Both the position numbers and the translations under genes were made by a program. Positions 878-64,000 of a stretch of 64,000 nt of DNA are shown one piece after another. The DNA is from Deltaproteobacteria bacterium. GTDB lineage: Bacteria; Desulfobacterota; GWC2-55-46; UBA9637. Below the pieces are notes generated by a model. That model did no database searches. It was not told the DNA's origin and saw only the letters and a list, made by a program, of their open reading frames with translations. Where the stretch lies: NCBI GenBank assembly GCA_016219285.1, contig JACRNJ010000006.1:4988-68987 (forward strand), given 5' to 3'. Position 1 is the first letter of the stretch, and each line of letters opens with the position of its first letter.

Positions 878-2151
878 ATGATTTCCGTTGAAGCGGCATT
901 AGAAATAATCTTAAATGAAATAAAAACCCTTGGTATGGAAAGGGTAGATATTCTTTCAGCCCTCGGAAGGGTTCTTGGTGAGGATATATCTGCCGCCGTA
1001 GATAATCCGCCCTGGGATAATTCTGCAATGGACGGCTATGCTGTAAGGATGGCAGATACTAAAAAAGCGTCAAAAAACAAACCAGTAATCCTCAGTATAA
1101 TAGAGGACCTGCCGGCCGGTTATACGGCAAAGAAAAGTGTTAAAAAGGGAGAGGCGATAAGGATAATGACCGGAGCACCAATGCCAATAGGCGCTGATGC
1201 AGTGGTGATGGTGGAGGAGACAGAGAGGCAAGAGGCAAGAGGCAAGAGGTCAGAATATTTAAAGAGGCAAAGATTGGCGATAATATCCGAAGGGCCGGCG
1301 AGGATTTCAAAAGTGGCGATATTGTCTTAACAAAAGGCGCAACCATACGGCCTGCTGAAATCAGCATGCTTGCGGCAGTTGGCAAGCCTAATGTTTATGT
1401 GCATCAAAGGCCAAAGATCGCTGTGCTCGCAACAGGGGATGAGTTGGTAGAGATAGAGGAAAAGCCTGCCAACGGCAAAATAATAAATAGCAACAGCTAT
1501 GCCATATCTGCCCAGATAAAGGCATGCGGCGCTATACCTGTTCAGCTCGGTATTGCCAGAGATAATAAAAAAGACCTTGAGAAAAAACTTGAGTTTGGTC
1601 TGACGGCAGACTGCATTGTATCATCCGGCGGCGTTTCCGTAGGAGATTTTGATTTTGTAAAGGATGTTTTAAAGGGGATGGGCTCTGATCCCCGCTTGGG
1701 ACATGCGGGGACAGGGATGCGTTTCTGGAAAGTGGCGATGAAACCCGGTAAACCCCTCGCCTTCGGCGTTATTGCAAACAAACCTGCATTTGGCCTGCCG
1801 GGAAATCCCATATCGTCAATGGTTGCATTTGAACAGTTTGTAAGGCCAGCCATCTTAAAGATGACAGGAAAAAAAGATATTTTCAAGAGGGCATTTGAAG
1901 CGCTGCTCACCAAACCTATAAAGAAAAAATCAGGCAGGATGCACTTTGTAAGGGCGGCCATTGAACAAAAGAATGGACAATTTTATGCCACACCTCTGGA
2001 GGGTCAAGGCTCCGGTATGTTGAGAAGTATGGTAAAGGCCGATTGTCTCATTATACTTCCAGAAAACATCCAGGACATAGAAAAGGACTGTAAGGTAAAG
2101 GTTCAGCCTCTGGGTGAGAGCCTTTTGTATCAGGATAAGCCGGGATATTAA
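878..2151 (+). CDS. moeA: Molybdopterin molybdotransferase MoeA, interrupted by a frameshift inside an (AGGCAAG)3 heptanucleotide repeat; ORFs 878-1330 and 1366-2151 are the N- and C-terminal parts
   Basis: The N-terminal ORF has the MoeA N-domain (PPWDNSAMDGYAV...GADAVVMVEETE). The shifted frame continues with the conserved VRIFKEAKIGDNIRRAGEDFKSGDIVL...GGVSVGDFDFVKDVL region. A fourth repeat copy (+7 nt) would restore one continuous frame. Confidence 0.8.
1226..1246. repeat. Perfect heptanucleotide tandem repeat (AGGCAAG)x3 inside moeA
   Basis: Read directly from the sequence: aggcaag aggcaag aggcaag followed by agg. Confidence 0.95.
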
Positions 2152-2237
2152 AGTAGTTCACGCTGAAAATTGCCTGACCCATGACTCTGTCGTGGGTGCC
2201 CGCTGCGTTGCCTTCGTCGCTGCACTGCTCACATACC

Positions 2238-2328
2238 TGTAGTTTGCCATTTATGGGCATTTTTTAAAAGCGCCGATAAATCGGCACACTACAATCGCCT
2301 TGCATCTGGGCAATTTTTGAGCGTGCAC
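2238..2328 (+). repeat. Copy A of a multi-copy palindromic intergenic element (TGTAGTTTGCC-ATTTATGGGC...GCCGATAAATCGGC...ATTTTTGAGCGTG)
   Basis: The sequence is near-identical to segments at 63668-63840 and, inverted, 62064-62132. It contains the palindromes GCCCATTTATGGGC-like and GCCGATAAATCGGC. Confidence 0.7.
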
Positions 2329-2408
2329 TATATAAAGATGTGGTTCTTCAGTGACAACAAAGTAAAAAGATTTCGGATTGTAAATTATTCTTAAAATGGA
2401 GAGTAGGG

Positions 2409-3458
2409 ATGTTTAAGACCATAGAATGGCAAAACAACAACGTTATCATGATAGACCAGAGGCTTTTACCAAACGAGGAGGTCTACCGAACATATAAAGA
2501 TTTCCTTGATGTTGCAGAGGCTATTCGTGAGATGGTTGTGAGGGGCGCGCCGGCAATAGGCGTTGCGGCAGCAATGGGAGTTGCATTGGGCGCTCTTAAA
2601 ATAAATGCAAAAGACCGCAAGGGGTTTGTAAAAGAATTTGAAAAGATTTGCAAGATTATGGCCGGCACCCGCCCAACAGCAGTAAATCTGTTTTGGGCCA
2701 TTGAAAGGATGAAACGGGTTGTAAAAAAAAACCATAAACTCAGCGTGGATGAATTAAAACAAACACTTATTCAAGAGGCACAAAATATTCACGAACAAGA
2801 TATTGAAATAAACAAGGAGATGGGTAGACATGGCAGCAAGTTGATAAAAAACAAGGCTACTATTCTTACGCATTGCAATGCAGGCGCATTGGCAACCGCA
2901 GGATATGGCACAGCCCTCGGAGTAATAAGGGCGGCGGTTGAACAAGGGAAAAAGATAAAGGTCTTTGCGGATGAGACAAGGCCATTTTTGCAGGGTTCAA
3001 GGCTTACAGCGTGGGAACTTATGAAGAACGGCATAGATACAACTCTTATCACGGACAATATGGCAGGCTACATGATGAAGAAGGGGCTGATAGATGTTGT
3101 TATTGTAGGCGCTGACAGGATTGCCGCCAATGGAGATACTGCGAATAAGATAGGAACGTATTCAGTTGCAGTTCTGGCAAAGGAGCATAAAATCCCCTTT
3201 TATGTTGCAGCTCCCATATCCACTATAGATTTAAACATAAAACATGGAGATAAAATTCCGATTGAGGAAAGGAATATAAGAGAAGTAACGCATATAAAGG
3301 ATATTCCCATAGCCCCTAAGAATATAAAGGTAAAAAATCCTGCCTTTGATGTAACACCCAATAGACTGATAACAGCCATCATCACAGAAAGAGGCATTGC
3401 CAGAAAATCATTTGAAAAGAGTTTGAAAAGGATGGTCAAAGCTGACAAGATTTTCTAA
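2409..3458 (+). CDS. mtnA: Methylthioribose-1-phosphate isomerase (eIF-2B alpha/beta/delta-like family)
   Basis: 349 aa. The sequence has family motifs ([55 protein letters not shown]). Confidence 0.8.
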
Positions 3459-4023: not shown

Positions 4024-4731
4024 TATAGACTCCTTTATTTATTTGCCCGCCAAAACTCACCATCCGCCGTTTTTTAGCGCTCAGGCGCAGCGCCTTGTTG
4101 GGCAAATATTACAGCACATTTACTTTGACCACATTACGAAGTTGCGGCCCAGCAACTTCAAGCGCCAGTTTGATAATTTATGGGTGATTTGGCGGGTGGC
4201 AAAGCGCATAATCTACCCGGAGGCCATCAACAGAAAACTCAGGGTTTACGATTGAAGTATCAAATACTGGCCAGCCAAGTTCATGCAAAGCGGGTAAGTA
4301 ATAGAATGCCTTGAGATACGGCGGCTTCGGAGGTAAATCTGTCTTCACGTAGACCTTGCCGCATTTTGGCAATGTGATTTGAGATTTCCATTTTGCTTTC
4401 TTCCTTCTTTATGCCATTCTTTTTTATGTCGCAGCATCATTTTTGTTGATTTTAGGTCAAATAAATAAACCTGTCAAGATTAAAGACCGGCTGCCATCAA
4501 TTTAACCCCTTGAAAAATAATAAGAATAATTTTTATTTGTAAATTATGCAGCGTGCTATATAATGTGCGGATTAATTATGCTTGCGGTATTTAAGACGTT
4601 TCTGACTGAAAAAGAAAGAACACCCGAAAAGAACATCCCCTATTATATAAAATGGGTTTTGGATTGCATCAACAGCCTTGATTACACAGAGTTTTTCGGA
4701 CTGTTTAGGGGAACAGCCCTATAGGACATTT

Positions 4732-5988
4732 TTACTCCCTCACCTGCCCTTCTCCATAAATTATAAACTTCTGCGTTGTAAGCTCAAGAAGCCCCATAGG
4801 GCCGAAGGCGTGAATCTTTGTTGTGGATATGCCTATCTCCGCGCCGAGACCAAGTTGGAAGCCGTCGGAAAATCTTGTGGAGGCATTGACCAATACGGTG
4901 GATGAATTCACCTCTCTTAAAAACCTCTGGCTATTGGAATAATCCTTTGTGATTATAGACTCTGTATGCAGCGAGCCGTATTTTGCAATGTGCGCTATCG
5001 CCTCATCCATATCTTTTACAATCTTTACCGCCAGAATCAAATCCAGATATTCTGCTGACCAATCCTCTTCTGTGGCGGGCTTGGCAAAAAGCAATATCTT
5101 TCTTGTCTCAGCACATCCTCTAAGCTCAACATTTGCCTTCTGATATTTTTTGCCCATCTCTGGCAAGAACCTTTTTCCTATTTTTTTGTGAACCAGAAGT
5201 GTCTCCATTGCATTGCATACACCGGGTCTTTGAACCTTTGCATTGAAGCAAATCTTCTCCGCCATATCCACATCCGCAGATTCATCAACAAATATATGGC
5301 ATACTCCCTTATAGTGTTTGATGACAGGAATCTTTGAGTTGTCTACAACAAACCTTATAAGCCCTTCTCCGCCCCTTGGAATAATAAGGTCAATGTATTC
5401 CTCAAGTTTCAGCATCTCCAAAACCGCTTCTCTGTCAGTTGTCGGAACAACCTGAATTGCCGTGTCCGGAATACCTTTTTTTTTACACGCATCCTGCAGA
5501 ACCTTTGCAATGGCAAGGTTTGAATTTATTGCCTCTGAGCCGCCTCTTAAGATTACCGCATTGCCTGATTTCAGACAAAGCACTGCCGCATCGGCAGTAA
5601 CATTGGGTCTTGCCTCATAAATTATGCCGATGACGCCGAGAGGTATTCTCATCTTTCCGACAACAAGTCCGTTCGGCCTTTTCCACATTTTAGAAATCTC
5701 GCCAACAGGGTCGGGCAGGGCTGCAACCTCTCTTATGCCGTCAGACATATTCTTTACAACCTTGTCGCTTACGGTGAGCCTGTCTATCATGGCCTTCGAT
5801 AAGCCTTTGTCTTCCGCAGCTTCAAGGTCTTTTTTATTTGCCTTTTTTATTTTATCCGCACTTTTTAAAAGCTCCTCTGCCATTGTTAATAGTGCTTTGT
5901 TTTTGATATTGGTATTCAGGTTGGCAAGTTTTAAAGACGCCTCTTTAGCAGATTGGGTAATTCGCTGAATATCAGATTTTATAGACAT
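4732..5988 (-). CDS. proA: Gamma-glutamyl phosphate reductase
   Basis: 418 aa, aldehyde-dehydrogenase fold, ProA motifs ([18 protein letters not shown]...ILRGGSEA...STRFSDG). Confidence 0.9.
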
Positions 5989-6239
5989 AAAAACACCTCT
6001 GACCTTAAAAGATTTAAGTTGTAAGTTATAAGATTAAAGTTAGAAGAGTTTTTTACTTAAATCTTTTACCCTTAATCTTAAATCTTATTTTTATAATGAG
6101 CAAAGGTTATTGTAACAATATGTCTGTTATTGTCAATATATTCTCCTAATCCGCTATAGCGATAGCGGGATTTACAAACTAAAATTACTGAAAGATTATT
6201 CTTGAACCGATGACGGCTCTTCTTGTAGAATGAGATGCA

Positions 6240-6851: not shown

Positions 6852-6933
6852 AAAAACTGGCAATTGGCCATGGGCAATAGGCTACAGGATTTTCCTATCA
6901 CCTCTTGCCTCGTGCCTATCGCCTATCTTTATT

Positions 6934-8414: not shown

Positions 8415-8500
8415 TGTAATATGTCTTTTTAACATAGAAAAAAATGCAACCGCATTCTTTGCACAATCTATTTACGGCAAAAGAAAATATTTCAAACCCC

Positions 8501-10835: not shown

Positions 10836-12110
10836 TCATCCCCTTTGCAAAGTGAAAATGTCACTTTTCTGTTTTTGAACAGGGTATTTTTGCAGCAATC
10901 TTGTTATTGGTTCCGGTAAAGTATTTAACATCCTATCCGGTTTGGAAACTGTTTTCAGCTCTTTGACATTCAGATAGTACTCCTTATATTTGATATAGAC
11001 TGTAGAATCCAGTCTTACCTCTACAGTTACTTTAGCCTTTGCATAAGAATATCTTCTACCATCCGGAAGTATCTGGAATATACGGTTCTTAAAAGAAAGG
11101 GTATTGTCAGCCATTACCGTTCTTTCCTCCCTGACAGAAAAGACCGCATCCATATCTACATGATTTGGGAGTGGTCTATAGGCTGGGGCTGCCTCTTTAG
11201 GAGATATTGCAAACTTTGAATTATATTTAGGCAGGAATGTTTTATGGAGGTATTTATTGGCATCTTTGATATTTGATATGCCCATGACCCTCATCTCCTT
11301 AAGAAGCCTGTCCTGAAAGGTTTTAAAGAGCCTTTCTATGCGGCCTTTTGCCTGAGGGGAGTTTGCCAGAATAAGATTTATCCCTATCTCAGAGAGCGCC
11401 ATTTCAATCTGTGTAGGCTCGTAAATACCTGTTAGATTGACACTGTAAGAAGAGTGGCGGGTAGTCTTAAAATGGCTTGCCCTATCTACATAAAAGGCAG
11501 CAGGCAAGCCCTTGTTCAGGATAAGTTCCCTCATAACCTGCATATTGTTAACGGTAGAGTCGGAATCTACGAATAGGGCATATGGGACTTCACCTGTAGC
11601 ATCATCTATGGCAGCAATAAGGGAGGCAACAGGGGCTCTGCCAAAAAACCAGTCATGTTCAGATGTGTCCATCTGGATTAAGAGCCCTTCCCTCGGCATT
11701 CTATCCCTCCTGGCGCGGTGTTTGGGGCGCTTTCTTGATTTGGTTCTTAGATTTGCATTGAGAAGGAGTGTCCTTATAAACTCTCTGGACACAGAGATGC
11801 CATGTTCCTCTTCGAGGGTCTCTTTAAAGTGGGAGCAATTATAGTCCTTATATGTGTTGGAATAGAGGTTTAAGATGGTTTTCTTTACAGGGGCAAGAAT
11901 AGCGATGCAAGGGACATTCCCCTTATTCCCATGGACAACTCCCTTTATGCCGTCTCTCTTGACTTTCTTTCTAAGCCTTATTACTTGTCTTACAGAAAGG
12001 TTTAACAACCGGGCTGCCTCCTTATTCTTTAATTTACCATCTAACAAATCCTTAATAATAGAATGTTTTGTTATCTCTTTCTGACTCAAAGTGATTACCT
12101 CCTCCTTCAT
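10836..12110 (-). CDS. ISNCY-family transposase (N-terminal HTH, integrase/rve catalytic core)
   Basis: 424 aa. The N-terminus matches IS1202/ISNCY transposases (MKEEVITLSQKEITK...AARLLNLSVRQVIRLRKK). A DDE-type integrase core is implied by the family. Confidence 0.8.
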   Translation of the reverse strand: MKEEVITLSQKEITKHSIIKDLLDGKLKNKEAARLLNLSVRQVIRLRKKVKRDGIKGVVHGNKGNVPCIAILAPVKKTILNLYSNTYKDYNCSHFKETLEEEHGISVSREFIRTLLLNANLRTKSRKRPKHRARRDRMPREGLLIQMDTSEHDWFFGRAPVASLIAAIDDATGEVPYALFVDSDSTVNNMQVMRELILNKGLPAAFYVDRASHFKTTRHSSYSVNLTGIYEPTQIEMALSEIGINLILANSPQAKGRIERLFKTFQDRLLKEMRVMGISNIKDANKYLHKTFLPKYNSKFAISPKEAAPAYRPLPNHVDMDAVFSVREERTVMADNTLSFKNRIFQILPDGRRYSYAKAKVTVEVRLDSTVYIKYKEYYLNVKELKTVSKPDRMLNTLPEPITRLLQKYPVQKQKSDIFTLQRG

Positions 12111-12188
12111 ATATCCCTCATGGTTATTTGATTATTATTTGATTACCTCCTCCTTCATATATCCCTCATGGTTATTTGATTATTATTT
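12093..12188. repeat. Perfect 48-bp tandem duplication covering the transposase start codon and RBS
   Basis: gattacctcctccttcatatatccctcatggttatttgattattattt is repeated twice back to back. Its reverse complement contains aaggaggaggtaatc, which is the transposase RBS plus ATG. Confidence 0.9.
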
Positions 12189-12336
12189 GACCCAGGAAGG
12201 ATACCTTAAATCTTACGGAGGTGACATTATCACTTTGCAATAAAAGGTGACATTATCACTTTGCAACTACATAAGATAAAACAAGCCTTGACAAAAGCGT
12301 AATATTTTTTTAATATTATTTTTTAATATTTTAATA

Positions 12337-12412
12337 GGGCCCATAGCTCAGTTGGAAGAGCCACCGGCTCATAACCGGTCGGTCCCTGGTTCGAGTCCAG
12401 GTGGGCCCACCA
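12337..12412 (+). tRNA. tRNA-Met (anticodon CAT; elongator-type or tRNA-Ile2 lysidine type)
   Basis: 76-nt cloverleaf: acceptor gggccca/tgggccc, anticodon loop ctCATaa, T-loop ggttcgagtcc, 3' CCA encoded. Confidence 0.85.
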
Positions 12413-13848: not shown

Positions 13849-14334
13849 GAAGAGGGATTCGCTGAAGTGAGACGAGATGGCCGCTGCCCCGGTGTTATAT
13901 CGGGATAGAGGAAAGTCCGGACTCCACAGGGCAGGGAGGTCGCTAACGGCGACCTGGATAATCCAAGGGAAAGGGCCACAGAAAATAAACCGCCCCGCGC
14001 CTTACGGTGCGAGTTATCAGTCAAAAGCCAAAAGCCATTAGTATTTTTTTTACTGGTGACTGATGGCTAATGACTCCTGACTCCGAGGCGTCAGCCTCGG
14101 TGGGTAAGGGTGAAACGGCGGGGTAAGAGCCCACCGCCCCGATGGCGACATCGGGGGCTTGGCAACCCCCTCTCGGAGCAAGACCAAATAGGAAGGCATT
14201 TAAGGACTGCCCGTCCGCGCCTTCGGGTTGGTTGCTTGAGGTGCTGAGCAATCAGCATCCCAGATGAATGGCCATCGTTCCAATGCAATATCGGAAAGAC
14301 AGAATCCGGCTTATTGTTTCACTTCAGCGAATAA
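13849..14334 (+). ncRNA. rnpB: RNase P RNA (bacterial type A)
   Basis: The P1 helix pairs gaagagggattcgctgaagtga with tcacttcagcgaat. Conserved GGAAAGTCCGGACTCCACAGGGCAGGG, AGGGTGAAACGGCGGGGTAAGAGCCCACC and ACAGAATCCGGCTTA blocks are present. The six-frame ORFs overlapping it are spurious. Confidence 0.85.
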
Positions 14335-22872: not shown

Positions 22873-22949
22873 TGGCGGGGCCGACGGGGCTCGAACCCGC
22901 AACTTCCGCCGTGACAGGGCGGTGCTCTAACCAATTGAACTACGGCCCC
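22873..22949 (-). tRNA. tRNA-Asp (GTC)
   Basis: The reverse complement gives GGGGCCGTAGTTCAATTGGTTAGAGCACCGCCCTGTCACGGCGG...TTCGAGCCCCGTCGGCCCCGCCA. The anticodon loop is CTGTCAC. Confidence 0.85.
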
Positions 22950-23058: not shown

Positions 23059-23134
23059 TGGTAGGCGGAACAGGGATCGAACCTGCGACATCAGCCTTGT
23101 AAGGGCTGCGCTCTACCAACTGAGCTATCCGCCC
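23059..23134 (-). tRNA. tRNA-Val (TAC)
   Basis: The reverse complement gives GGGCGGATAGCTCAGTTGGTAGAGCGCAGCCCTTACAAGGCTG...GGTTCGATCCCTGTTCCGCCTACCA. The anticodon loop is CTTACAA. Confidence 0.85.
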
Positions 23135-24281: not shown

Positions 24282-24337
24282 ATTGCTGCCATTATTATGT
24301 AGTCTGTCCATCCCCAATTAAAACACTTGGGAACAAG

Positions 24338-24384
24338 TTTATGGGCGTATTTAGAAACAACGATGAATCGGCAAACTATAAAAT
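24338..24384 (+). repeat. Copy B (partial) of the palindromic intergenic element family
   Basis: tttatgggcgtatttagaaacaacgatgaatcggcaaactataaaa matches the core of the 2238 and 63668 copies. Confidence 0.6.
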
Positions 24385-35116: not shown

Positions 35117-36621
35117 TTGGATACGGCTCTGTATATATGAATCTGCCTGATAATGGATTTGCGCAACCCAGGGGCAGCGAAGGCGGCGACTCCTATTGTG
35201 ATAAGACCAGCCGCAATGAGATAGAGCAGTTTCGACGGCATGGAAACTACTTCTGGTTGCAAATACCAAAAGACCCAGACGATAAGAACCGCTGCAGAGA
35301 GCGGTAGGCCGAGGTCCGTGCCATACCAGCGCCATTTTTCACCGGGCAGCAAACGGCGGTGTATGAAGTGCATGCCGATAATTACGTAACCAACATTCAG
35401 CGCAACCCATATCCATGCCGCCCCGATGGCTCCGTAGCGCGGGGTTACCCAAAGGATGGCCGGCACCACCACAGCAACCGCCACAATATTCATCCACACG
35501 GAAAAACCGGTCCAACCGTATGCAAGTATGAGCATGTAAGGAATGTGCGTTAAATCGTTGAGCATGGCGCCTAATGCCAGCAAAACCAATAATGGAGCAA
35601 CATTATCCGAAAGCCCCGCGTTGCCTGTCCATAAAACAAGCAGGTTTTTCCCGAAAAACATCATCATGAACGCGGCCGGCGCCACGAACGCGCTGATAAG
35701 CTGCGCGCCCTGATGGTAGGCGCTGATAAGAGCCGACGTATCTCCCCGTGTAACCAACTCGGTAAAGCGGGGATAATATGCTTGCGTAATCGGGCTGGTT
35801 ATTTGGTACAGCGCACCGGCCACAGTCCATGCGAGCATGTAATAGCCGAACATCTCCAAAGTTAACAGACGGGAAAGTATCACCTTATCTATCTGCGTCA
35901 ACAACAACGCCAACAAGGTCGTTGCCATCATCCCGCTTGCGAATCGCCAAACGCTTCGCAGTTGAAACAATGAAAACTTGGCCGAATGTTCCGAAGGCGG
36001 CAAGCGCCGATACACGGCAAAGACGAAAACTGTAACAGTGACAACCGATGCGGAGCACTGCCAGAGAAAAAACGCCTTAATAGTCGGCGATATCCACACC
36101 AATACAATAACCGCCCCTGCCCAGCGCAAAGTGGCGAGTCCGGACACGGCGACATTTAACAATACTTGTTTTTGCAAACCCGCTATCGCGCCATGGTAGA
36201 GACTTTCGACGAAACGCAGAGCGACTACGAATCCCATGATTGATATTGCCTCTGCGACCGTTTCAACGGGCAGTTTTCCCGAGCGTAACCAGTTAGCACC
36301 GAGCCATGTTGACAGGAGCCAAACTCCAACCCCGATCAAAATAGCGATTGCGAAGCAGATCACTTCCAGACTGCGCAGCAAATCACGTATGGATTTATCC
36401 GTATGAGCACCCGCCGTATAGCGCGCCATCTCCCGGTTGAGCGTCGGCGTCATGCCCATATCCAGAAGCGCAAGCCATGCCTGTAACATGATAAACACGC
36501 CTATCAGCCCATACGCCTCCATGCCCAGATATTTGATGTAAACGGGCGCAAACGCAATCCCCATCAGGGCTGTCCAGCCATGACCAAGATAGTTGGCGAA
36601 AATGTTTTTCTTTAGCGACAT
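35113..36621 (-). CDS. wzx: Polysaccharide/O-antigen flippase Wzx (PST/MOP family, multi-pass membrane)
   Basis: 502 aa, highly hydrophobic, with the PST-family N-terminus MSLKKNIFANYLGHGWTAL. This is the most GC-rich gene in the cluster. Confidence 0.75.
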   Translation of the reverse strand: MSLKKNIFANYLGHGWTALMGIAFAPVYIKYLGMEAYGLIGVFIMLQAWLALLDMGMTPTLNREMARYTAGAHTDKSIRDLLRSLEVICFAIAILIGVGVWLLSTWLGANWLRSGKLPVETVAEAISIMGFVVALRFVESLYHGAIAGLQKQVLLNVAVSGLATLRWAGAVIVLVWISPTIKAFFLWQCSASVVTVTVFVFAVYRRLPPSEHSAKFSLFQLRSVWRFASGMMATTLLALLLTQIDKVILSRLLTLEMFGYYMLAWTVAGALYQITSPITQAYYPRFTELVTRGDTSALISAYHQGAQLISAFVAPAAFMMMFFGKNLLVLWTGNAGLSDNVAPLLVLLALGAMLNDLTHIPYMLILAYGWTGFSVWMNIVAVAVVVPAILWVTPRYGAIGAAWIWVALNVGYVIIGMHFIHRRLLPGEKWRWYGTDLGLPLSAAVLIVWVFWYLQPEVVSMPSKLLYLIAAGLITIGVAAFAAPGLRKSIIRQIHIYRAVSK

Positions 36622-36626
36622 TCAAA
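36550..36626. repeat. Direct repeat copy 1 (~76 bp): the 5' end of wzx including its start codon
   Basis: It is near-identical (3-4 mismatches) to 37515-37591. Confidence 0.85.
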
Positions 36627-37064
36627 TTTCCTGCAATATCTCTTGATGTTCCCAGCAATTTCAAAGAGTTTTCCCGTCCATAATAGAACTTCTTCAAATT
36701 TCTTCACATAGTCTTCTTCAAGATACTCGTGAACCAGCTCATTTCTCAAGTCTTTCATCGCCCTCAACAAATCAACACTCTCAACAATGCCTTTCTTTTC
36801 AGCACGATTTGCCACATCGAGCGTTGTGCCTGGTTCTTCAAGCTCAACAAAATCAATATTTCTCAAGACCTTCATTACAATCATATCAACCGCCCTGCCG
36901 AATCTGCCGCACAAAGTCTCAAATGCCTCAAGCTCGGCCTCGTCATAATTTCCCTTTATCCCAATTATTCTGCATTTCTGGTAAGACCTTTTCAGCCAAG
37001 CTAACGACTGATCCAAATCTCGTAAACTTTTGATGAGGATTTCAAGATAATCTTTTTGTGTCAT
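36612..37064 (-). CDS. HEPN-domain protein (HI0074-like nucleotidyltransferase substrate-binding protein), putative toxin
   Basis: 150 aa with an Rx4H HEPN motif (LRNELVHEY). Its stop overlaps the wzx start, and it is paired with the upstream MNT gene. Confidence 0.7.
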   Translation of the reverse strand: MTQKDYLEILIKSLRDLDQSLAWLKRSYQKCRIIGIKGNYDEAELEAFETLCGRFGRAVDMIVMKVLRNIDFVELEEPGTTLDVANRAEKKGIVESVDLLRAMKDLRNELVHEYLEEDYVKKFEEVLLWTGKLFEIAGNIKRYCRKFECR

Positions 37065-37514: not shown

Positions 37515-37591
37515 AAACGCAATCCCCATCAGGGCTGTCCAGCCCTGACCAAGATAGTTCGCGAAGATGTTTTTCTTTAGCGACATTCAAA
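37515..37591. repeat. Direct repeat copy 2 (~76 bp): a duplicated wzx 5' end encoding only a truncated 40-aa peptide
   Basis: aaacgcaatccccatcagggctgtccagccctgaccaagatagttcgcgaagatgtttttctttagcgacattcaaa. The minus strand reads MSLKKNIFANYLGQGWTALMGIAFIP... then a stop. Confidence 0.85.
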
Positions 37592-37610
37592 AATCCAAGG
37601 GGCGCGCCTC

Positions 37611-53620: not shown

Positions 53621-55012
53621 ATGCAACTCATCAAAGATTTTGACCCATTCAAGATCCTCAAGACGGCTCTGAAGAGAGGCGGTGACTTTGCAGATATATA
53701 TATGGAGGAGACTGTTAACACATCCATAATCTGTGAAGAGAATAGGATTGAGAAGGTAATATCGGGAAGAGACAGGGGGTTAGGATTAAGGGTTATCTTT
53801 GATTTCAAGACAGCTTATGCCTATACAAATGATACAACCGAGAACGGGCTTCTGGAATTGGCAGATATAGTGAGTAAGGCGGTAAAAGAGGGCAGGACAA
53901 AAAAGGATGTATTTCTTGTTAAGAAAGATATTACCCAAGGTTTTTTAATAAAAACCCCGCCTTCCAGTGTCGACCTGTTAAAAAAGGTAGAGCTGGTTAA
54001 AAACGGAAATTCCTTTGCAAGAGGTTTTGACAAAAGGATTGCCCAGGTAAAGGTGGTCTATGGCGACGGATTCAGGAAAATGGCTGTTGTAAATTCTCTT
54101 GGCCAGTGGATTGAGGAAAACAGGACAGGTATTTTATTTTTAGTTCAGGCGGTTGCAAGACAAGGAGATGTTGTGCAGACAGGTTATGAGCCAATAGGCG
54201 GCGTTATGGGTTTGGAGATATTTGAGCAAAACCCTCCTGAAAAGATTGCCGAGACAGCAGCAAAAAGGGCCATACTTATGCTAAAGGCACGCAAGGCATC
54301 CGGAGGTAAGATGCCTGTTGTTTTGTCCAGCGAGGCTGGCGGCACCATGATTCACGAGGCAATAGGCCATGGGCTTGAGGCAGACCTGGCTCAGCAGGGC
54401 CTTTCAGTATATTCAGGGAAGATTGGTGAAGAGATTGCGTCACCGCTTATAACCGTTATAGACGACGCAACTATTCCGTACAAGAGAGGCTCGTTTTTCT
54501 TTGATGATGAGGGAAGCCCAGGCCAAAAAACAATCCTTGTAGAAAACGGGATTTTAAAAAACTATATGTACGACCGTCTTACGGCAATGAAGGATAATAC
54601 GGTATCCACTGGAAATGGCAGACGAGAATCTTACCACCACAGGCCTATCCCGCGGATGACAAATACCATGATTGCCGCCGGCAAATCAAATCCTCATGAA
54701 ATTGTCAAATCCCTTGAAAAAGGGCTTTTTGTAAAAAAGATGGGCGGTGGGCAGGTAAATACCGTGAACGGTGATTTTGTGTTTGAGGTTACAGAAGGTT
54801 ATTTAATAGAAAAAGGTAAAATAGGGGAGATTGTAAGGGGCGCAACGCTTACAGGCAATGGCCCTCAAGTTTTGAAAAATATAGATATGCTCGGCTCTGA
54901 TATTGGTTTTGGAATAGGCACGTGCGGAAAGGATGCCCAGGGAGTGCCTGTTTCAGATGCCCAGCCGACATTACGGATACCTGAAATAGTGGTTGGGGGA
55001 GAGGTGCGATAA
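53621..55012 (+). CDS. tldD: TldD/PmbA-family metalloprotease
   Basis: 463 aa with TldD family similarity (GGDFADIYMEE...HEAIGHGLEAD...). Confidence 0.85.
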   Translation: MQLIKDFDPFKILKTALKRGGDFADIYMEETVNTSIICEENRIEKVISGRDRGLGLRVIFDFKTAYAYTNDTTENGLLELADIVSKAVKEGRTKKDVFLVKKDITQGFLIKTPPSSVDLLKKVELVKNGNSFARGFDKRIAQVKVVYGDGFRKMAVVNSLGQWIEENRTGILFLVQAVARQGDVVQTGYEPIGGVMGLEIFEQNPPEKIAETAAKRAILMLKARKASGGKMPVVLSSEAGGTMIHEAIGHGLEADLAQQGLSVYSGKIGEEIASPLITVIDDATIPYKRGSFFFDDEGSPGQKTILVENGILKNYMYDRLTAMKDNTVSTGNGRRESYHHRPIPRMTNTMIAAGKSNPHEIVKSLEKGLFVKKMGGGQVNTVNGDFVFEVTEGYLIEKGKIGEIVRGATLTGNGPQVLKNIDMLGSDIGFGIGTCGKDAQGVPVSDAQPTLRIPEIVVGGEVR

Positions 55013-55030: not shown

Positions 55031-55055
55031 AGTAGTTGCCAATTTATGGGCGCTC
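55031..55055 (+). repeat. Copy E (partial) of the palindromic intergenic element family, followed by a hairpin
   Basis: tagttgccaatttatgggcgc matches the 5' part of the 2238 copy. An adjacent hairpin ggagcgc/gcgctcc lies at 55051-55076. Confidence 0.45.
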
Positions 55056-55110
55056 CGATGTTTTGTTAGGAGCGCTTGTCAAAAAATGCAACTGTATTTT
55101 TTGGGTTAAT

Positions 55111-55699: not shown

Positions 55700-56185
55700 T
55701 TATAATGTTTTCAATACAGCCTCTAATTCCGCAGCGTGCATCTTTTCCTCGTCGGCAAGCTCTGTATACATTGCAGCGCCTTCTTTGGTAGAGGCCTTTT
55801 TAGCCATGCCTTTAAAGTATTCTGATGCATATCTCTCTGTGTGGATGGCCAGTATCACAGCCTTTTTTATGCTGTCTATAGCGCGAACAAGTTTTTCTAT
55901 GTTTATCTCTTCAGTAAATATTTTAGGGTCTGCGGTTCTTGAAATATAATCCTCAATGGCAAGCTCCTCATCTGTAATCTGCTCCCCAAAACCTGCTTCA
56001 GGGTAATATTTCTTTTCCAATATCTTCATATGTCTTTTCTCTTCTTGTGCAAGGTTTTTAAATACAGTCTTTATTGTTTTATCCTCTATCCTATCTGCAA
56101 GTATAGAATAAAATGCAAACCCATTTTTTTCTATTAAAGAGGCTATCTCCACAGCCTCCTTCTCTTCAAGGTGTTCAAAAGTCAT
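55700..56185 (-). CDS. Ferritin-like/rubrerythrin-like diiron protein
   Basis: Paired ExxH motifs (EEKRHM, EEKMHAAE). The start is taken at MTFEHLEEKE, which is preceded by a ggaggt RBS. Confidence 0.6.
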   Translation of the reverse strand: MTFEHLEEKEAVEIASLIEKNGFAFYSILADRIEDKTIKTVFKNLAQEEKRHMKILEKKYYPEAGFGEQITDEELAIEDYISRTADPKIFTEEINIEKLVRAIDSIKKAVILAIHTERYASEYFKGMAKKASTKEGAAMYTELADEEKMHAAELEAVLKTL

Positions 56186-57161: not shown

Positions 57162-59393
57162 ATGCCACAAAAACCCTTAAATATTTCCGACAAACAATCC
57201 CTTCTCCAATTCATGCGGGACAAGGCATACAGGCCGCTGTCGTTTAAAGAACTAACCCGCCGAATGCAGGTTCCTAAGGAACAAAGAGACATTTTTAAAA
57301 AACTGCTGAGAGATTTGATTAAGGACGGTCATATTGTAAAGATTAGAGGCGAGCGGTATGGCGTTCCGGCAAAGATGAATCTCACTGTTGGCGAGCTTTC
57401 GTGCCATCCCAATGGCTTTGGCTTTGTTGCGCCTGAAGCCGGCGGAGAGGATATATTTATCAATCCCAGAAATATGAAAGGCGCCATGCACAGGGACAAG
57501 GTTGTGGCAAGGGTTGAAGGCCGCAGCAAAGGCAATGGCAAGAGAGAGGGAAGGATTATAAGAGTCCTTGAACGGGCGCATAAAACCATAGTTGGGAGGT
57601 TTGAGAAGAGCAAGGAAGTTGGGATTGTTATCCCGTCTGATGAAAGGGTTCTGCAGGAGATTATAATCCCTTTGAAAGACATAAACACGATTCAACCTGT
57701 CCTGAAAGGTTTTAATTCAGGAACCGCGCCTGCAAGCAGGCACGAACTTATTCGCGCTATGGAAGGTAAGATTGTTGAGGCAGAGATAACAAGGTGGCCT
57801 GAGGAAAATATTGCCCCTGCCGGAAGGATTATTGGAATTATTGGAGAGCCTGATGACACTGAGGTAGAGATTGAGGTTATCGTAAAAAAATACGGCCTGC
57901 CGCACCGGTTCCCTCATCATGTAATTGCTGAGGCAAAGGGAACGCCGCAGGAGGTTGCGGAGCAGGATATTGCCGGGAGGGTGGATTTACGAAAAAGGAC
58001 TACGGTTACGATTGACGGTGAGACAGCAAAGGATTTTGATGATGCGGTTTCCATAGAAAGAACAAGCAGAGGGTATAAATTGTGGGTATCTATTGCAGAT
58101 GTAGCTCATTATGTGAAAAAGGGAAGTATCTTGGATGAGGAGGCATATAAAAGAGGGACAAGCGTATATTTTCCGGACCGGTGCATCCCCATGCTGCCGG
58201 AGGCTTTGAGCAACGGCATCTGTAGTTTAAACCCAAATGTTGACCGGCTCACCCTTACGGCAGAGATGGATTTTGACCACCACGGCAATATTCTACACAG
58301 TAAATTTTACGAGAGCGTTATCAACAGTTGCGAGAGGCTGACTTATACAAATGTGAAAAACATTCTTGATTCAAAATTAAAGATTCAAGATTCAAAAATA
58401 GAGGCAGACCTTTTATTAATGCAGGAGCTTTGCCTAAAACTCAGGCAAAGACGGGCAGAACTTGGCAGCATTGACTTTGACCTTCCTGAGCCGCAGATTA
58501 TTATTGATATAGAAGGAAGGGTTGAGGATATTGTAAAATCTGAGAGAAATATTGCCCACCAAATAATAGAAGAATTTATGCTTGCGGCAAACCAATCAGC
58601 AGCAGCCTATATTGCCAGATTAAAACTCCCCTTTTTATACAGGATACATGAAAAACCGGATGAAGAGAGCATAAATGAGTTCAAGGAGTTTATCCAAAAC
58701 TTTGGATATCATCTCAAAGGGAAAAAACTAAGTTCTAAGGTTCTTCAGGATTTATTATCGGAGGCAGCAGGCAAACCTGAAGAAAAACTAATCAATCACA
58801 TACTCCTCCGTTCCATGAAACAGGCAAGATATTCTGAAAAAAACATCGGCCACTTTGGACTTGCCTTTGAATATTACACCCACTTTACATCTCCCATCCG
58901 CAGATACCCGGACCTCATAGTGCACAGAATTTTAAAAACAATGATAAAAACAAGATATTCTGAAAAAGATAAAGCATATTGGGAAAAAAACCTGCCTGAA
59001 ATTGCAGCCCACACATCTCAAAGAGAGAGAAATGCCATGGGGGCTGAAAGGGAGATAGTTGATTTGAAAAAGACCCAGTTTATGAAAGATAAAATCGGCG
59101 AGGTGTATAACGGCATTATATCAGGTGTTACCAGTTTTGGCCTCTTTGCAGAGCTTGAGGAATATTTTGTAGAAGGGCTGGCGCATGTTACGAATATGAA
59201 AGACGACTATTATATGTTTATGGAAAAAGAGCATTCCCTTATTGGGGAACATACCAACAAGAGATACCGAATAGGGGATAAGGTAAAGGTAAAAATAGAA
59301 AATGTAAATATTGAGCGGCGGCAGATAGATTTGGCGCTGGAAGGGCAGATTAAAACAGGCAAAAGGCACGAGGCAGGAGGCTATAGAAAATGA
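57162..59393 (+). CDS. rnr: Ribonuclease R
   Basis: 743 aa with N-terminal HTH/cold-shock domains, an RNB catalytic domain (DFDDAVS...) and a C-terminal S1 domain. Confidence 0.9.
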   Translation: MPQKPLNISDKQSLLQFMRDKAYRPLSFKELTRRMQVPKEQRDIFKKLLRDLIKDGHIVKIRGERYGVPAKMNLTVGELSCHPNGFGFVAPEAGGEDIFINPRNMKGAMHRDKVVARVEGRSKGNGKREGRIIRVLERAHKTIVGRFEKSKEVGIVIPSDERVLQEIIIPLKDINTIQPVLKGFNSGTAPASRHELIRAMEGKIVEAEITRWPEENIAPAGRIIGIIGEPDDTEVEIEVIVKKYGLPHRFPHHVIAEAKGTPQEVAEQDIAGRVDLRKRTTVTIDGETAKDFDDAVSIERTSRGYKLWVSIADVAHYVKKGSILDEEAYKRGTSVYFPDRCIPMLPEALSNGICSLNPNVDRLTLTAEMDFDHHGNILHSKFYESVINSCERLTYTNVKNILDSKLKIQDSKIEADLLLMQELCLKLRQRRAELGSIDFDLPEPQIIIDIEGRVEDIVKSERNIAHQIIEEFMLAANQSAAAYIARLKLPFLYRIHEKPDEESINEFKEFIQNFGYHLKGKKLSSKVLQDLLSEAAGKPEEKLINHILLRSMKQARYSEKNIGHFGLAFEYYTHFTSPIRRYPDLIVHRILKTMIKTRYSEKDKAYWEKNLPEIAAHTSQRERNAMGAEREIVDLKKTQFMKDKIGEVYNGIISGVTSFGLFAELEEYFVEGLAHVTNMKDDYYMFMEKEHSLIGEHTNKRYRIGDKVKVKIENVNIERRQIDLALEGQIKTGKRHEAGGYRK

Positions 59394-61185: not shown

Positions 61186-62037
61186 TTGTTTGAGATAGCA
61201 GAAAAAAAACAGCTTTCACATACAGTCGCCCTTTTCAAGATAAAGGCGCCGATGATTGCAAAAAAAAGGAAGGCAGGTCAGTTTATCATAATCCGCCTGA
61301 ATGAGCATGGCGAAAGAATACCGCTTACCATTGTGGATTCTGACAACTCAGAAGGCACAATCACCATAATATCTCAGGAGGTTGGAAAAACCACTTCCAT
61401 GCTCGGCGCCCTTGGGAAAGGCGACACCATCATGGATGTTGTAGGCCCTTTGGGCAAGGCGACACACATAGAGAACTTCGGCACAGCTGTTTGTGTTGGA
61501 GGGGGCATAGGCATCGCCCCTGTCTATCCCATTGCAAAGGCGCTGAAGGCTGCCGGCAATAAGGTTATCTCAATAATAGGCGCAAGAACAAAAGAGCTTT
61601 TAATCCTTGAACATGAAATGCGAAAGACAAGCGATGAACTGATTGTAACAACAGACGACGGCAGTTACGGCCATCACGGATTTGTGACTCAGATACTTCA
61701 AAAGCTGATAGATGAACAGACGAAGATTGGTCTGGTGGTCGGCATAGGTCCGGTGCCCATGATGAGGGCGGTGTGCAATGTGACGCGGCCTTATAAAATT
61801 CATACAGTTGTAAGTTTAAATCCTATAATGGTGGACGGGACAGGCATGTGCGGCTCATGCAGGGTAACCATAGGCGGAAAGAATAAATTTGTCTGTGTTG
61901 ACGGACCTGAATTTGACGGCCACGAAGTTGATTTTGATGAACTAATAAGGAGAAACAGAAGCTATCTCAAAGAGGAAAAGATAGCCATGGAAGAGGCCAC
62001 TTATCATGAAGGCACAAGGTGTTATGAGAGGAGATAA
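61186..62037 (+). CDS. FAD/NAD-binding oxidoreductase subunit with a [2Fe-2S] C-terminus (NfnA/SudB/PyrK-like)
   Basis: 283 aa with a ferredoxin-reductase-like fold and C-terminal CGSCRV...C. It is paired with the GltD-like gene downstream. Confidence 0.75.
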   Translation: MFEIAEKKQLSHTVALFKIKAPMIAKKRKAGQFIIIRLNEHGERIPLTIVDSDNSEGTITIISQEVGKTTSMLGALGKGDTIMDVVGPLGKATHIENFGTAVCVGGGIGIAPVYPIAKALKAAGNKVISIIGARTKELLILEHEMRKTSDELIVTTDDGSYGHHGFVTQILQKLIDEQTKIGLVVGIGPVPMMRAVCNVTRPYKIHTVVSLNPIMVDGTGMCGSCRVTIGGKNKFVCVDGPEFDGHEVDFDELIRRNRSYLKEEKIAMEEATYHEGTRCYERR

Positions 62038-62063
62038 CATGACTATAGGCAGCGACATAAATT

Positions 62064-62132
62064 TGTAGTCTGCCGATTTATCGGCGATTTTAAAATACGC
62101 CCATGGGGCACCAAACAGAAGGTTGGGTCGGG
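62064..62132 (-). repeat. Copy C (inverted orientation) of the palindromic intergenic element family
   Basis: tgtagtctgccgatttatcggcgattttaaaatacgcccatggggc...gggcaaactacag is the reverse complement of the 63668 copy. Confidence 0.65.
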
Positions 62133-62244
62133 CAAACTACAGCTACTTATTTTTGTCGTTCATTATATGCAGATTACAATGGCAGATTAAGGCAAAAATA
62201 ATAGCTTAACTCTGTGTAATCGTTTATAAAAAGGAGTTGGATTA

Positions 62245-63663: not shown

Positions 63664-63667
63664 AGTA

Positions 63668-63840
63668 GATTGCCCATTTATGGGCGTATTTAAAAACGCT
63701 GATAAATCGGCAAACTACAGCGCCTTGCCCTTGACAAACTATCTCCTTTGCCAAAGGCAAAAGAGTTTTGTGTTTTGCTTCGGCAAAACACATAATTTGT
63801 AAAGGGCTTGCATCTTGGAAATTTTTGAGCGTGAACTGCA
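63668..63840 (+). repeat. Copy D of the palindromic intergenic element family, with a ~75-bp internal insertion
   Basis: tgcccatttatgggcgtatttaaaaacgctgataaatcggcaaactacagcgccttgcc ... gcttgcatcttggaaatttttgagcgtgaact matches 2238-2328 across both ends. Confidence 0.7.
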
Positions 63841-64000
63841 CCTTGCCCAGCCAGCTTTTCTTTGTCCCCTGATAGAAACTTTCAGGGGCAGGCTTTGGCT
63901 CAAACATTACGTTTGTATAAAAATATAAAACGGTAATCTACGGACTCATCTTGTTATACTGCTCCCTTGTCTTATCCAGCAAAAGCGCCATGCTAATTTC

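Follow-up and report, generated by a model that had tools for sequence, protein, structure and literature searches.

Short repetitive extragenic palindromic sequences (REPs) with a terminal GTAG have been described as a superfamily (Di Nocera, De Gregorio and Rocco, 2013, PMC3733652). They form head-to-head heterodimers, which are the rule in many GTAG families, have TY dinucleotides as hairpin loops, lie between unidirectional or convergent genes, and occur in REPtrons, i.e. genes for REP-associated tyrosine transposases (RAYTs) together with their flanking REPs. Closely related are the REPINs, pairs of inverted REPs a short distance apart, for which a role as the replicating unit has been proposed (Bertels and Rainey, 2011, PMC3116915; Bertels et al., 2017, PMC5581495). 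Here, we analysed a 64-kb stretch of DNA, referred to below as the window, from the Deltaproteobacteria bacterium assembly GCA_016219285.1 (contig JACRNJ010000006.1, positions 4,988 to 68,987), in whose intergenic spaces a structured element recurs. Sequence comparison makes it quite probable that the element is an inverted doublet of GTAG-tagged REPs, a REPIN-like heterodimer, mobilised by a RAYT (TnpA-REP). It is not a new kind of system; GTAG REPs, REPIN-like heterodimers and REPtrons are all of a known kind, and what seems to be undescribed is only the family itself. In the literature that we searched, its REP strings are nowhere treated as repeats, and they are absent from the supplements of two key REP papers.

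The likeness to the GTAG superfamily, as set out in the survey, comprises the terminal GTAG beside a stem of 6-9 bp, the TY loops (TT or TC here), pairs with GTAG outward and unlike partner stems, unidirectional or convergent placement, occasional long self-complementary loops, and RAYT genes flanked by REPs. In contrast, the GCCGAT/ATCGGC stem of our element was not found in the text or supplements of the survey, although the family may yet be identical with one of the 24 treated there, and the hosts are uncultivated groundwater and sediment bacteria, including members of the candidate phyla radiation, instead of the cultured Proteobacteria, Cyanobacteria and Planctomycetes covered there. With the REPIN-RAYT systems the element shares the two inverted REPs and short spacer, the non-autonomous character, the gene for an HUH tyrosine transposase flanked by REPs, and the absence from orthologous sites in relatives. 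It differs in that covariation backs separately folded arms rather than one long hairpin, in that the RAYT clade is divergent and shorter (about 127-150 aa; one member falls below a curated family cut-off, see below), and in that nearly the same REP is found under many phylum labels, whereas group 2 and group 3 systems are lineage-specific and vertically inherited.

In format, the closest characterised counterpart of GCCGA-TTTA-TCGGC is REPMb of Marinomonas sp. MWYL1, a 10-nt perfect palindrome with a 4-nt TTTA loop that stands 2 bases from GTAG (Corneloup et al., 2021, PMC8266576); in our element the distance is 3 bases, so that the linker is one base longer. In that study, REPMb is cleaved only if T12, T13 and A15 are present and its stem is perfect, and GTAG guides the choice of site; more generally, TnpA-REP cleaves single-stranded REPs at CT or CA beside the hairpin in a GTAG-dependent way, and for the short REPs of group 3, particular loop bases are needed as well as a perfect stem. 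The bacterial interspersed mosaic elements of Escherichia coli, with their y and z REPs and the TnpA-REP of structure 4ER8, are alike in having inverted, alternating and non-identical REPs, and their enzyme is the closest solved structure by sequence to the one associated with our element. Unlike the perfect and short REPs described here, E. coli REPs are imperfect palindromes of 29-37 nt with an essential bulge, and no inter-REP motifs for host proteins such as IHF were identified in our doublets.

The basic unit of the family is 21 nt long and reads GTAG-NN-T-GCC[G/C]AT-TT-AT[C/G]GGC. It can be laid out as GTAG, a 3-nt linker and the perfect hairpin GCCGA-TTTA-TCGGC, which amounts to a 6-bp stem with a TT loop. 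Two units stand inverted, with their GTAG ends outward and about 12 nt of spacer between them, giving a compact form of 54 nt; within the 'Deltaproteobacteria' sub-family, a T/A-rich palindrome, TTTTAAAA, is conserved as this spacer. One arm is always of the G type (GCCGAT..ATCGGC), while its partner varies with lineage, being GCCCAT..ATGGGC (C type) in the source genome and GCCTGAT, GCCCAAT, GCTCAAT or GCCCGAT elsewhere, and almost every doublet is such a heterodimer of the constant G-type arm and a lineage-specific partner. GTAG and CTAC are present without exception in 46 of 46 aligned doublets, and the TTTA centre is invariant as well. The first-pass annotation of the window had described both short palindromes, and likewise the outer TGTAG/CTACA arms, exactly as they stand. 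Its element size of about 90 bp has to be replaced by the 54-nt core, and the tail GCCTTGCATCTGGGCAATTTTTGAGCGTG of its consensus is not part of the element at all, since it is the right end of a carrier repeat of about 175 bp (type A, 2155-2329) that is treated below.

The repeat family is real and lies far above chance. The half-site pattern GTAGTTTGCCNATTTATNGGC, with at most 3 mismatches, has four matches in the window against 0.06 expected from shuffles, and automated repeat finding recovered the family (as D1, I1 and I5). A covariance model, trained on 46 doublets (44 from other genomes plus the window copies 2239-2292 and 63665-63718), found four significant sites in the window: 63665-63718 (66.6 bits) and 2239-2292 (62.8 bits), the scores of these two training copies being partly circular, then 62065-62140 (52.6 bits) and 24299-24379 (32 bits, E ~2e-7). 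A site at 55032-55051 scored weakly (9 bits, E 3.6) and is at most a single eroded half-site. The window thus holds three intact copies of 54-76 nt, one decayed copy and one doubtful half-site, i.e. 4-5 copies in 64 kb, where a family of five had been annotated:

2239-2292, no strand: REP doublet copy 1, between a MoeA-like gene and mtnA (2409-3458); identified by sequence, pattern match, model (62.8 bits) and DNA fold (z = -5.3).
2239-2258, plus strand: C-type arm of copy 1, GTAGTTTGCC-ATTTATGGGC, with a 1-nt deletion.
2272-2292, minus strand: G-type arm of copy 1, GTAGTGTGCCGATTTATCGGC, preceded by the spacer ATTTTTTAAAAGC; copy 1 as a whole reads GTAGTTTGCC-ATTTATGGGC, spacer, GCCGATAAATCGGCACACTAC.
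24299-24379, no strand: REP doublet copy 2, decayed, lying between pyrH and frr (neighbours assigned by Pfam; model 32 bits); its left arm GTAGTCTGTCC...TTTATGGGC is split by a 27-nt loop module, ATCCCCAATTAAAACACTTGGGAACAAG, inside the hairpin loop, and in its right arm, CGATGAATCGGCAAACTAT, the CTAC tag is degenerate (CTAT).
55032-55051, plus strand: copy 3, a possible lone decayed REP, GTAGTTGCCAATTTATGGGC, 3' of a PmbA/TldD-like gene; weak, and followed by an unrelated GC-rich hairpin.
62065-62140, no strand: REP doublet copy 4, between a ferredoxin-reductase-like gene and gltD (62245-63663); sequence and model (52.6 bits); orientation opposite to that of copy 1.
62065-62085, plus strand: G-type arm of copy 4, GTAGTCTGCCGATTTATCGGC; it is followed by the spacer GATTTTAAAATAC and a C-type arm whose loop is swapped for a 25-nt module, GGGGCACCAAACAGAAGGTTGGGTC.
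63665-63718, no strand: REP doublet copy 5, 3' of gltD, 1 nt past its stop codon; sequence, pattern matches, model (66.6 bits) and DNA fold (z = -4.8).
63665-63685, plus strand: C-type arm of copy 5, GTAGATTGCCCATTTATGGGC.
63698-63718, minus strand: G-type arm of copy 5, GTAGTTTGCCGATTTATCAGC.

Copy 2 had been placed at 24338-24384 and is genuine, but with its loop module it occupies 24299-24379; likewise, copy 4 had rightly been called inverted, but it extends over 62065-62140 rather than 62064-62132. Both GTAG tags are present in three window doublets, and copy 2 has GTAG on the left and the degenerate CTAT on the right. An 11-mer, ATTTATGGGCG, is common to copies 2, 3 and 5. All five copies are intergenic and lie between co-directional or convergent genes, as had been remarked at first, and none lies between divergent genes. 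A looser detector, GTAG plus any hairpin, gave 23 window matches against about 45 in shuffled sequence, and was dropped for counting as non-specific.

It was also observed that the 2-nt loop of the REP is repeatedly swapped for a self-complementary module of 20-30 nt with a conserved base, ...ATAAA-C[TC]TGT[CT]CCC-(N)-GGGGAT.... Such modules are found in copy 2 (24310-24337) and, among loci in other genomes (designated below by L-numbers and read as 8-kb blocks or metagenomic contigs), at L006 320, L054 2931, L096 4259, L116 1522 and L202 2959; they occur in several lineages, and in one case in a REP that directly adjoins a RAYT gene. A different loop module, GGGGCACCCAACAGAAGGTTGGGTC, marks the sub-family of copy 4. 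Elsewhere, the module of copy 4 was seen only within REP doublets, at L018, L061, L064 (twice) and L077.

For comparison of structures, 46 compact doublets were aligned with the G-type arm first. A model with two local hairpins and an outer GTAG/CTAC stem pairs 94% of the cells. The partner arm, which was not part of the search pattern, is paired in 98.5%, with four of its six pairs changed on both sides, the stem variants being CCCAT/ATGGG, CCTGAT/ATCAGG, CCCAAT/ATTGGG, CTCAAT/ATTGAG and others; the observed covariation score was reached by none of 500 shuffles. Of the 137 exact matches listed from other genomes, 136 have a complementary fourth stem pair (G..C or C..G), where chance would give about half. 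A model with pairing from arm to arm accounts for only 81.8% of the cells; columns 11-47 and 18-40 are mostly unpaired in it, and the positions that tell the arms apart are unpaired between arms in 33 and 39 of the 46 sequences. Because compensation is found within arms and not between them, each arm appears to be maintained as a separate hairpin, and the alignment indicates that selection keeps each REP as a hairpin of its own rather than the pairing between arms. The search for compensatory changes with a covariance model that the first-pass annotation had suggested is therefore answered by covarying hairpins within the arms.

The enzyme is linked to the REP in other genomes. At 6317-6730 of L012 (Doudnabacteria), a gene encoding a 137-aa protein with an HUH motif and a catalytic tyrosine is bracketed by GTAGTCTGCCGATTTATCGGC and its reverse complement, and more doublets adjoin it. 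The protein matches Pfam Y1_Tnp (PF01797) with 29.8 bits, above the cut-off of 23, and its best NCBIfam match is REP_Tyr_transpos, with 67.4 bits versus 17.9 bits for IS200. A database search returned 204 relatives, mostly of 137 aa, several of which are named RayT by JGI; the protein clusters are almost all confined to one or few contigs. In an alignment of 20 members (A1), H65-x-H67 and Y103/Y104, the latter in YY(E)H, are invariant or nearly so; REP_Tyr_transpos is matched by 20 of 20 (best E 3.2e-22), a larger number than for any other family, and IS200 by 18 of 20 (best E 4e-10). The best match in PDB is 4ER8, the E. coli TnpA-REP (1.4e-13), followed at a distance by the ISDra2 TnpA (4.6e-5), the entries 2XM3, 2XMA and 2FYX having E 4.6e-5 or weaker against the enzyme clade. 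Judged by sequence, the associated protein is therefore closer to TnpA-REP than to the IS200/IS605 transposases.

We examined 80 metagenomic loci encoding relatives of the L012 protein for a GTAG hairpin with an ATTTAT centre within 200 nt of the gene, a unit whose background frequency is 13 in 214 kb. For homologues with at least 45% identity such a hairpin was present in 13 of 14 cases, usually on both sides; for those below 39% identity, it was near the gene in 6 of 61. In the range 39-42%, four of the five loci (L123, L125, L126 and L127) have a different GTAG REP, GCAGGGCTTGCCCTGC, and the fifth (L119) has the ATTTAT type. The REPtron arrangement is found in L012, L034 and L120, in 12 more metagenome loci, and in L202 and L203; in L120, the exact window-type REP stands beside the RAYT gene, and in L034 (CAZNYG, an Elusimicrobiales metagenome-assembled genome, MAG) a shortened RAYT lies between the same REPs with a doublet beside it. 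RAYT and dispersed doublets also occur together in single MAGs: in JBBRWU (L012, with L007, L036, L078 and L102) and, on separate contigs, in the 'Proteobacteria' MAG JAPLJI, where L202 carries the RAYT with flanking REPs and L067 a dispersed doublet. Across these loci, the association of this REP type with one RAYT clade is well supported by sequence comparison.

Evidence for insertion comes from gltD, both ends of which carry composite repeats in the window. L189-L193 are metagenomic contigs with a 93% identical GltD; there, the stop codon of the upstream gene overlaps the gltD start, the convergent gene on the downstream side ends 1 nt past gltD, and spacer and REP are both lacking. In the GWC2_42_51/GWB2_42_7 group (L194-L201), spacers of about 120 and about 370 nt are present that are partly alignable with the window, and no REP was found in 21 kb. 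L204 (NC_groundwater_1906), a genome that contains the family elsewhere, is without a doublet at gltD; like L194-L201, it comes from a cluster whose GltD proteins share 90% identity or more. Upstream of gltD the window is longer by about 125 bases (62043-62168), and downstream by about 180 (63665-63845). The missing copies at the same junctions of close relatives argue for insertion. A possible orthology of copy 5 with a carrier fragment in L204 was rejected, as the alignment puts the two on opposite sides of a conserved block. It may be added that the ancestral spacer 5' of gltD is conserved in relatives (window 62169-62230, L194 9905-9990, L204 2895-2990); in it, GATTACA / TGTAATC motifs recur (GCAGATTACA...CTGTGTAATCG), possibly as an operator.

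In order to see how far the family extends, the pattern GTAGNNTGCCSATTTATSRGC was scanned against 185,579 species-representative genomes (596 Gb). It was found in at least 108 eight-kb blocks, from about 50 MAGs among the matches listed, so that copies confined to the window, which the first-pass annotation had named as a result that would speak against its reading, are not what is seen. Hosts among the matches listed include eight 'Deltaproteobacteria' MAGs (Rifle, NC_groundwater), nine Doudnabacteria and ten Saccharibacteria, further labels being Elusimicrobia, Syntrophaceae, Zixibacteria, Planctomycetia, Omnitrophota, Ignavibacteria and others; related genomes have several matches each in the same set. 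An estimate with uniform composition predicts on the order of a hundred chance matches in 596 Gb. The matches are nonetheless not chance, because the S positions are complementary in 136 of 137, because a partner hairpin with CTAC follows within 130 nt in 71 of the 137 exact matches listed (spacer mostly 9-13 nt), and because the GTAG linker is lineage-specific, CG-T in Doudnabacteria and Saccharibacteria and TT-T or TC-T in the 'Deltaproteobacteria' group. Judged from these sequences, the lineage-specific linker also argues for repeats resident in the host genomes, and not for cross-contamination. Singletons in Chthoniobacterales, Oleiphilus and Hymenobacter resemble chance matches, the first two being non-complementary or without a partner arm.

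On the basis of homology and the published biochemistry, mobilisation and cleavage would proceed as follows. Each REP, on single-stranded DNA, would fold into its own hairpin; the RAYT/TnpA-REP, an HUH tyrosine transposase, would recognise hairpin and GTAG, cut beside them and rejoin strands; and the doublet would thereby be copied or moved to other intergenic sites. The enzyme would act in trans, from a gene that itself lies between two G-type REPs, and the source genome presumably has, or once had, such a RAYT.

It should be noted that several observations weigh against this reading. With family-profile hmmsearch, neither the 64-kb window nor the blocks sampled from the closest 'Deltaproteobacteria' genomes yielded a RAYT gene. 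The 67.4 bits of the L012 protein fall under the curated NCBIfam cut-off of 80 for REP_Tyr_transpos (NF047646). The RAYT genes of L008 and L052 do exceed it (about 89-90 bits), and neither could be accepted as cognate: that of L052 (89.9 bits) is a genuine RAYT with a different palindrome at its visible 3' end, its 5' end being lost at the block edge, and that of L008 is flanked by another REP type, GTAGGCGCCGGCTTCAGCCGCGCGC. In L204, the Y1 gene 1.1 kb 3' of the gltD orthologue encodes a TnpA of the classical IS200 kind and has end hairpins of its own. The minimum-free-energy DNA fold of the whole doublet is a long arm-to-arm hairpin (about -14 kcal/mol, z about -5), and therefore thermodynamics alone gives no preference for local hairpins. 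MAG labels can be wrong, as is illustrated by the 'Ignavibacteriae' locus L064, which holds a repeat 95.7% identical to the window's. Finally, copies 1, 4 and 5 lie within carriers with terminal inverted repeats (TIRs) that are conserved whole across genomes; since the carriers are conserved as units, the proximate mover could be another transposase.

Two of these loci have further features. In L204 (JACRML010000032.1), positions 4937-6031 3' of the gltD orthologue contain a PhdYeFM/ParE toxin-antitoxin pair and the IS200-type TnpA, whose gene is flanked by CCCTGCGCTCTTGGCGCAGGG hairpins and has no relation to the REP family studied. L064 (JACREY010000004.1, labelled Ignavibacteriae, GC 36%) has genes dissimilar to those of the window; its repeats share 92-96% identity with the type-B carrier and palindromic motif of the window, described below, and it also has a copy, 84% identical, of a nested miniature element found next to copy 5; it is either a mis-binned contig, a low-GC island or a case of recent repeat transfer.

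The carriers and the nested element, a MITE (miniature inverted-repeat transposable element), are the following:

2155-2329, plus strand: type-A carrier, about 175 bp, enclosing copy 1 and beginning 4 nt past the stop codon of the MoeA-like gene; identified by alignments with L021, L046, L085, L082 and L048 and by a TIR scan.
2156-2174 and 2310-2328: TIRs of the type-A carrier, GTTCACGCTGAAAATTGCC and GCAATTTTTGAGCGTGCAC.
62043-62168, plus strand: type-B carrier, about 125 bp, around copy 4, with imperfect TIRs of the CTATAG type, CTATAGGCAGCGA on the left and TCGTTCATTATAT on the right.
63719-63837, plus strand: right half of a type-A carrier, joined to copy 5; identified by repeat family D14, TIR scan and BLAST. 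It runs AGCGCCTTG ... CTTGCATCTTGGAAATTTTTGAGCGTGAACT, with its TIR at 63818-63836, and is broken by the nested MITE.
63728-63806, plus strand: nested 79-nt MITE, identified by sequence and fold (z = -6.1).

The type-A TIR has the consensus AGTTCACGCT[G/C]AAAAATGCCC (19-21 bp), and the carrier has an internal 9-bp hairpin, ACCCATGAC/GTCGTGGGT, which itself shows compensatory changes. Window positions 2151-2338 are 74-85% identical to L021, L046, L085 and L082. The type-B carrier, whose TIR consensus in relatives is CTATAGTSARCGA, is 96% identical to L064 and 90% to L077 and L061 over 117-125 nt, is 78% identical to L016 and L101, and is missing from the same gene junction in L189 and L194. The nested MITE is what had been annotated as a 75-bp insertion in copy 5; an insertion is indeed there, and it is 79 nt long. 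It has the two marks of a MITE, namely 15-bp TIRs (CCCTTGACAAACTAT / ATAATTTGTAAAGGG; CCCTTGACAAAYTAT), with two internal hairpins between them, and a target-site duplication, 4-bp CTTG at 63724-63727 and 63807-63810. Further copies are in L064 (1810-1891, flanked by CAAG) and L204 (two, at about 4520-4600 and about 4745-4825); one of those in L204 sits at the same CTTG of a type-A carrier (GCCTTG^CATCTG) as in the window, in the opposite orientation. The intergenic spaces of the window are thus stacks of three nested kinds of miniature element.

These stacks bring forward an explanation in which the doublets of this lineage are inert cargo, and the type-A and type-B carriers are what moves, in trans by a DDE-type transposase, in the manner of MITEs. 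Whole carriers, and not doublets alone, are conserved between genomes (74-96% identity); their TIRs are clear; three of the four window doublets lie within carriers or carrier halves; and type-A carriers without a doublet exist (L047 6895-7040, L085 about 1040-1200). However, in the alignments no target-site duplication is visible at the carrier ends, and no transposase was identified for either carrier type. Doublets of the same sub-family are also found outside carriers (copy 2, L052, L056, L038, L093 and L013), and the loop-module sub-family of copy 4 stands in at least three different flank contexts. Moreover, inert cargo leaves the covariation of the hairpins and the cross-phylum linkage of REP and RAYT unexplained. 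We consider this explanation rather unlikely, and allow that some of the spread of the doublets may have been as passengers of carriers. As for the doublets being MITEs themselves, inverted repeats are there in the form of the arms, but none of the window copies has direct repeats at its flanks.

Less probable, and in our judgement quite improbable, is that the doublet is a structure selected by the host at the RNA level, whether as a stabiliser of mRNA 3' ends, a bidirectional terminator or a small RNA. All copies lie 3' of genes that are co-directional or convergent, as the GTAG survey reports for transcribed REPs (PMC3733652), the spacer TTTTAAAA of the 'Deltaproteobacteria' sub-family puts a short T run after either hairpin, and the covariation of the hairpins fits RNA equally well. 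However, Rfam 15 gave no match at gathering threshold at the copies, and none at E<=1 on 2050-2450 and 61900-64000. A terminator scan gave no site in 1900-2600, around copy 1, and in 61800-64000 its sole call within a REP was a 5-bp stem on the minus strand (63672-63685, in copy 5); this weak call excepted, the REP hairpins lack the T run needed for an intrinsic terminator. The order of the arms relative to the flanking genes is mixed, the G-type arm coming first in two of the four window doublets and second in the other two. Close relatives, in which the genes at these junctions overlap or abut, have no copies there, and the same units are found, inverted, on either side of a transposase gene. 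Of the options left side by side in the first-pass annotation, then, neither the family of terminators nor the small structured RNA is borne out, while the REP/MITE-like element finds support in the inverted GTAG doublets, the covarying hairpins, the RAYT flanked by the same units elsewhere and the empty junctions in relatives. A secondary, exapted role of the doublets in RNA may nevertheless exist.

It appears very improbable that the doublets are non-autonomous derivatives of IS200/IS605, i.e. palindrome-associated transposable elements rather than REPs served by a domesticated RAYT: the enzyme does belong to the same Y1/HUH superfamily (Pfam Y1_Tnp), 18 of its 20 aligned members weakly match the IS200 model, and IS200-type elements occur in related genomes (L204), but REP_Tyr_transpos scores far better (67.4 vs 17.9 bits for L012; best E 3e-22 vs 4e-10), TnpA-REP 4ER8 outscores the ISDra2 and IS608-type transposases, the GTAG tag with identical hairpins at both gene ends is that of a REPtron, the ends of IS200/IS605 being dissimilar, and the protein clusters are on one or few contigs, unlike a multi-copy insertion sequence.

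Mobilisation of REP doublets by a RAYT is thus the reading that we prefer, and what is mildly surprising about it is the breadth of the family across MAG phylum labels, the compactness of the RAYT clade, and the rule of a constant and a variable arm. Rather tentatively, it could be that a single REP/RAYT lineage, consisting of the compact RAYT and a nearly invariant master REP, GTAG-N3-GCCGA-TTTA-TCGGC, has repeatedly crossed phyla among co-occurring groundwater and sediment bacteria, including those of the candidate phyla radiation with their tiny genomes; the arm rule would then reflect a functional asymmetry, in that either only one arm is the substrate of the enzyme or perfect palindromes are selected against, and the conserved loop modules (CTTGTCCC...GGGAT) would add another layer of sequence inside the hairpins. 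We are doubtful of this extended proposal, which, if true, would run against the picture of REPIN-RAYT systems as lineage-bound and vertically inherited. Some RAYT groups are without a strong association with host taxonomy, and over long times horizontal transfer may dominate (Bertels et al., 2017, PMC5581495). Neither the REP pattern nor the RAYT protein family had a match in a viral contig collection, and the plasmid search gave no DNA match and only protein matches of at most 31% identity; therefore, no vector for spread between hosts was identified.

The biology of REPs and REPINs rests nearly entirely on Enterobacteria, Pseudomonas and Stenotrophomonas. To this, the present analysis adds a well-defined REP family with covarying hairpin variants and the RAYT clade matched to it, whose proteins are unusually small; the family occurs in uncultivated lineages, Doudnabacteria and Saccharibacteria among them. 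No paper linking RAYTs to bacteria of the candidate phyla radiation was found in the literature searched. The family offers a natural test of how RAYT specificity relates to REP sequence, and of whether inheritance is only vertical. For the annotation of this genome, a set of structured intergenic repeats would be explained as mobile DNA, and not as regulators, small RNAs or terminators.

Some other features of the window were recorded. An A/T-rich palindromic motif, CAAAAAATGCA-NN-TGCATTTTTTG, is present at 8440-8459, 55082-55101 and 56109-56128; three approximate copies compare with 0.29 expected, and 1 of 100 shuffles has three. It is nearly identical in L064 (about 1620-1650) and L016 (about 5043-5075); a further small repeat is one possibility, a site for protein binding another. 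The minus-strand gene 10836-12110 has its ribosome-binding site and start region within a perfect 48-bp tandem duplication (2.1 copies, 12092-12190). Just past this duplication, a 22-nt direct repeat, AGGTGACATTATCACTTTGCAA, has two copies (12219-12267), and an inverted one stands at the gene's opposite end (10845-10868). A bacterial class A RNase P RNA was found at 13864-14329 (315 bits); its span of 466 nt exceeds the 367-position model, and it therefore carries insertions. Three tRNA genes are located at 12337-12409, 22876-22949 and 23062-23134.

Runs of the heptamers AGAGGCA / GGCAAGA and their inverted relatives (D9, I2, I9 and I19) were seen at 1224-1249, 6859-6932, 54358-54381 and 59349-59390, placed intergenically or at gene ends. 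Lastly, two 82-nt direct repeats, at 36550-36631 and 37515-37596, share 94% identity at a distance of 965 nt; they may represent the termini of paralogous genes.

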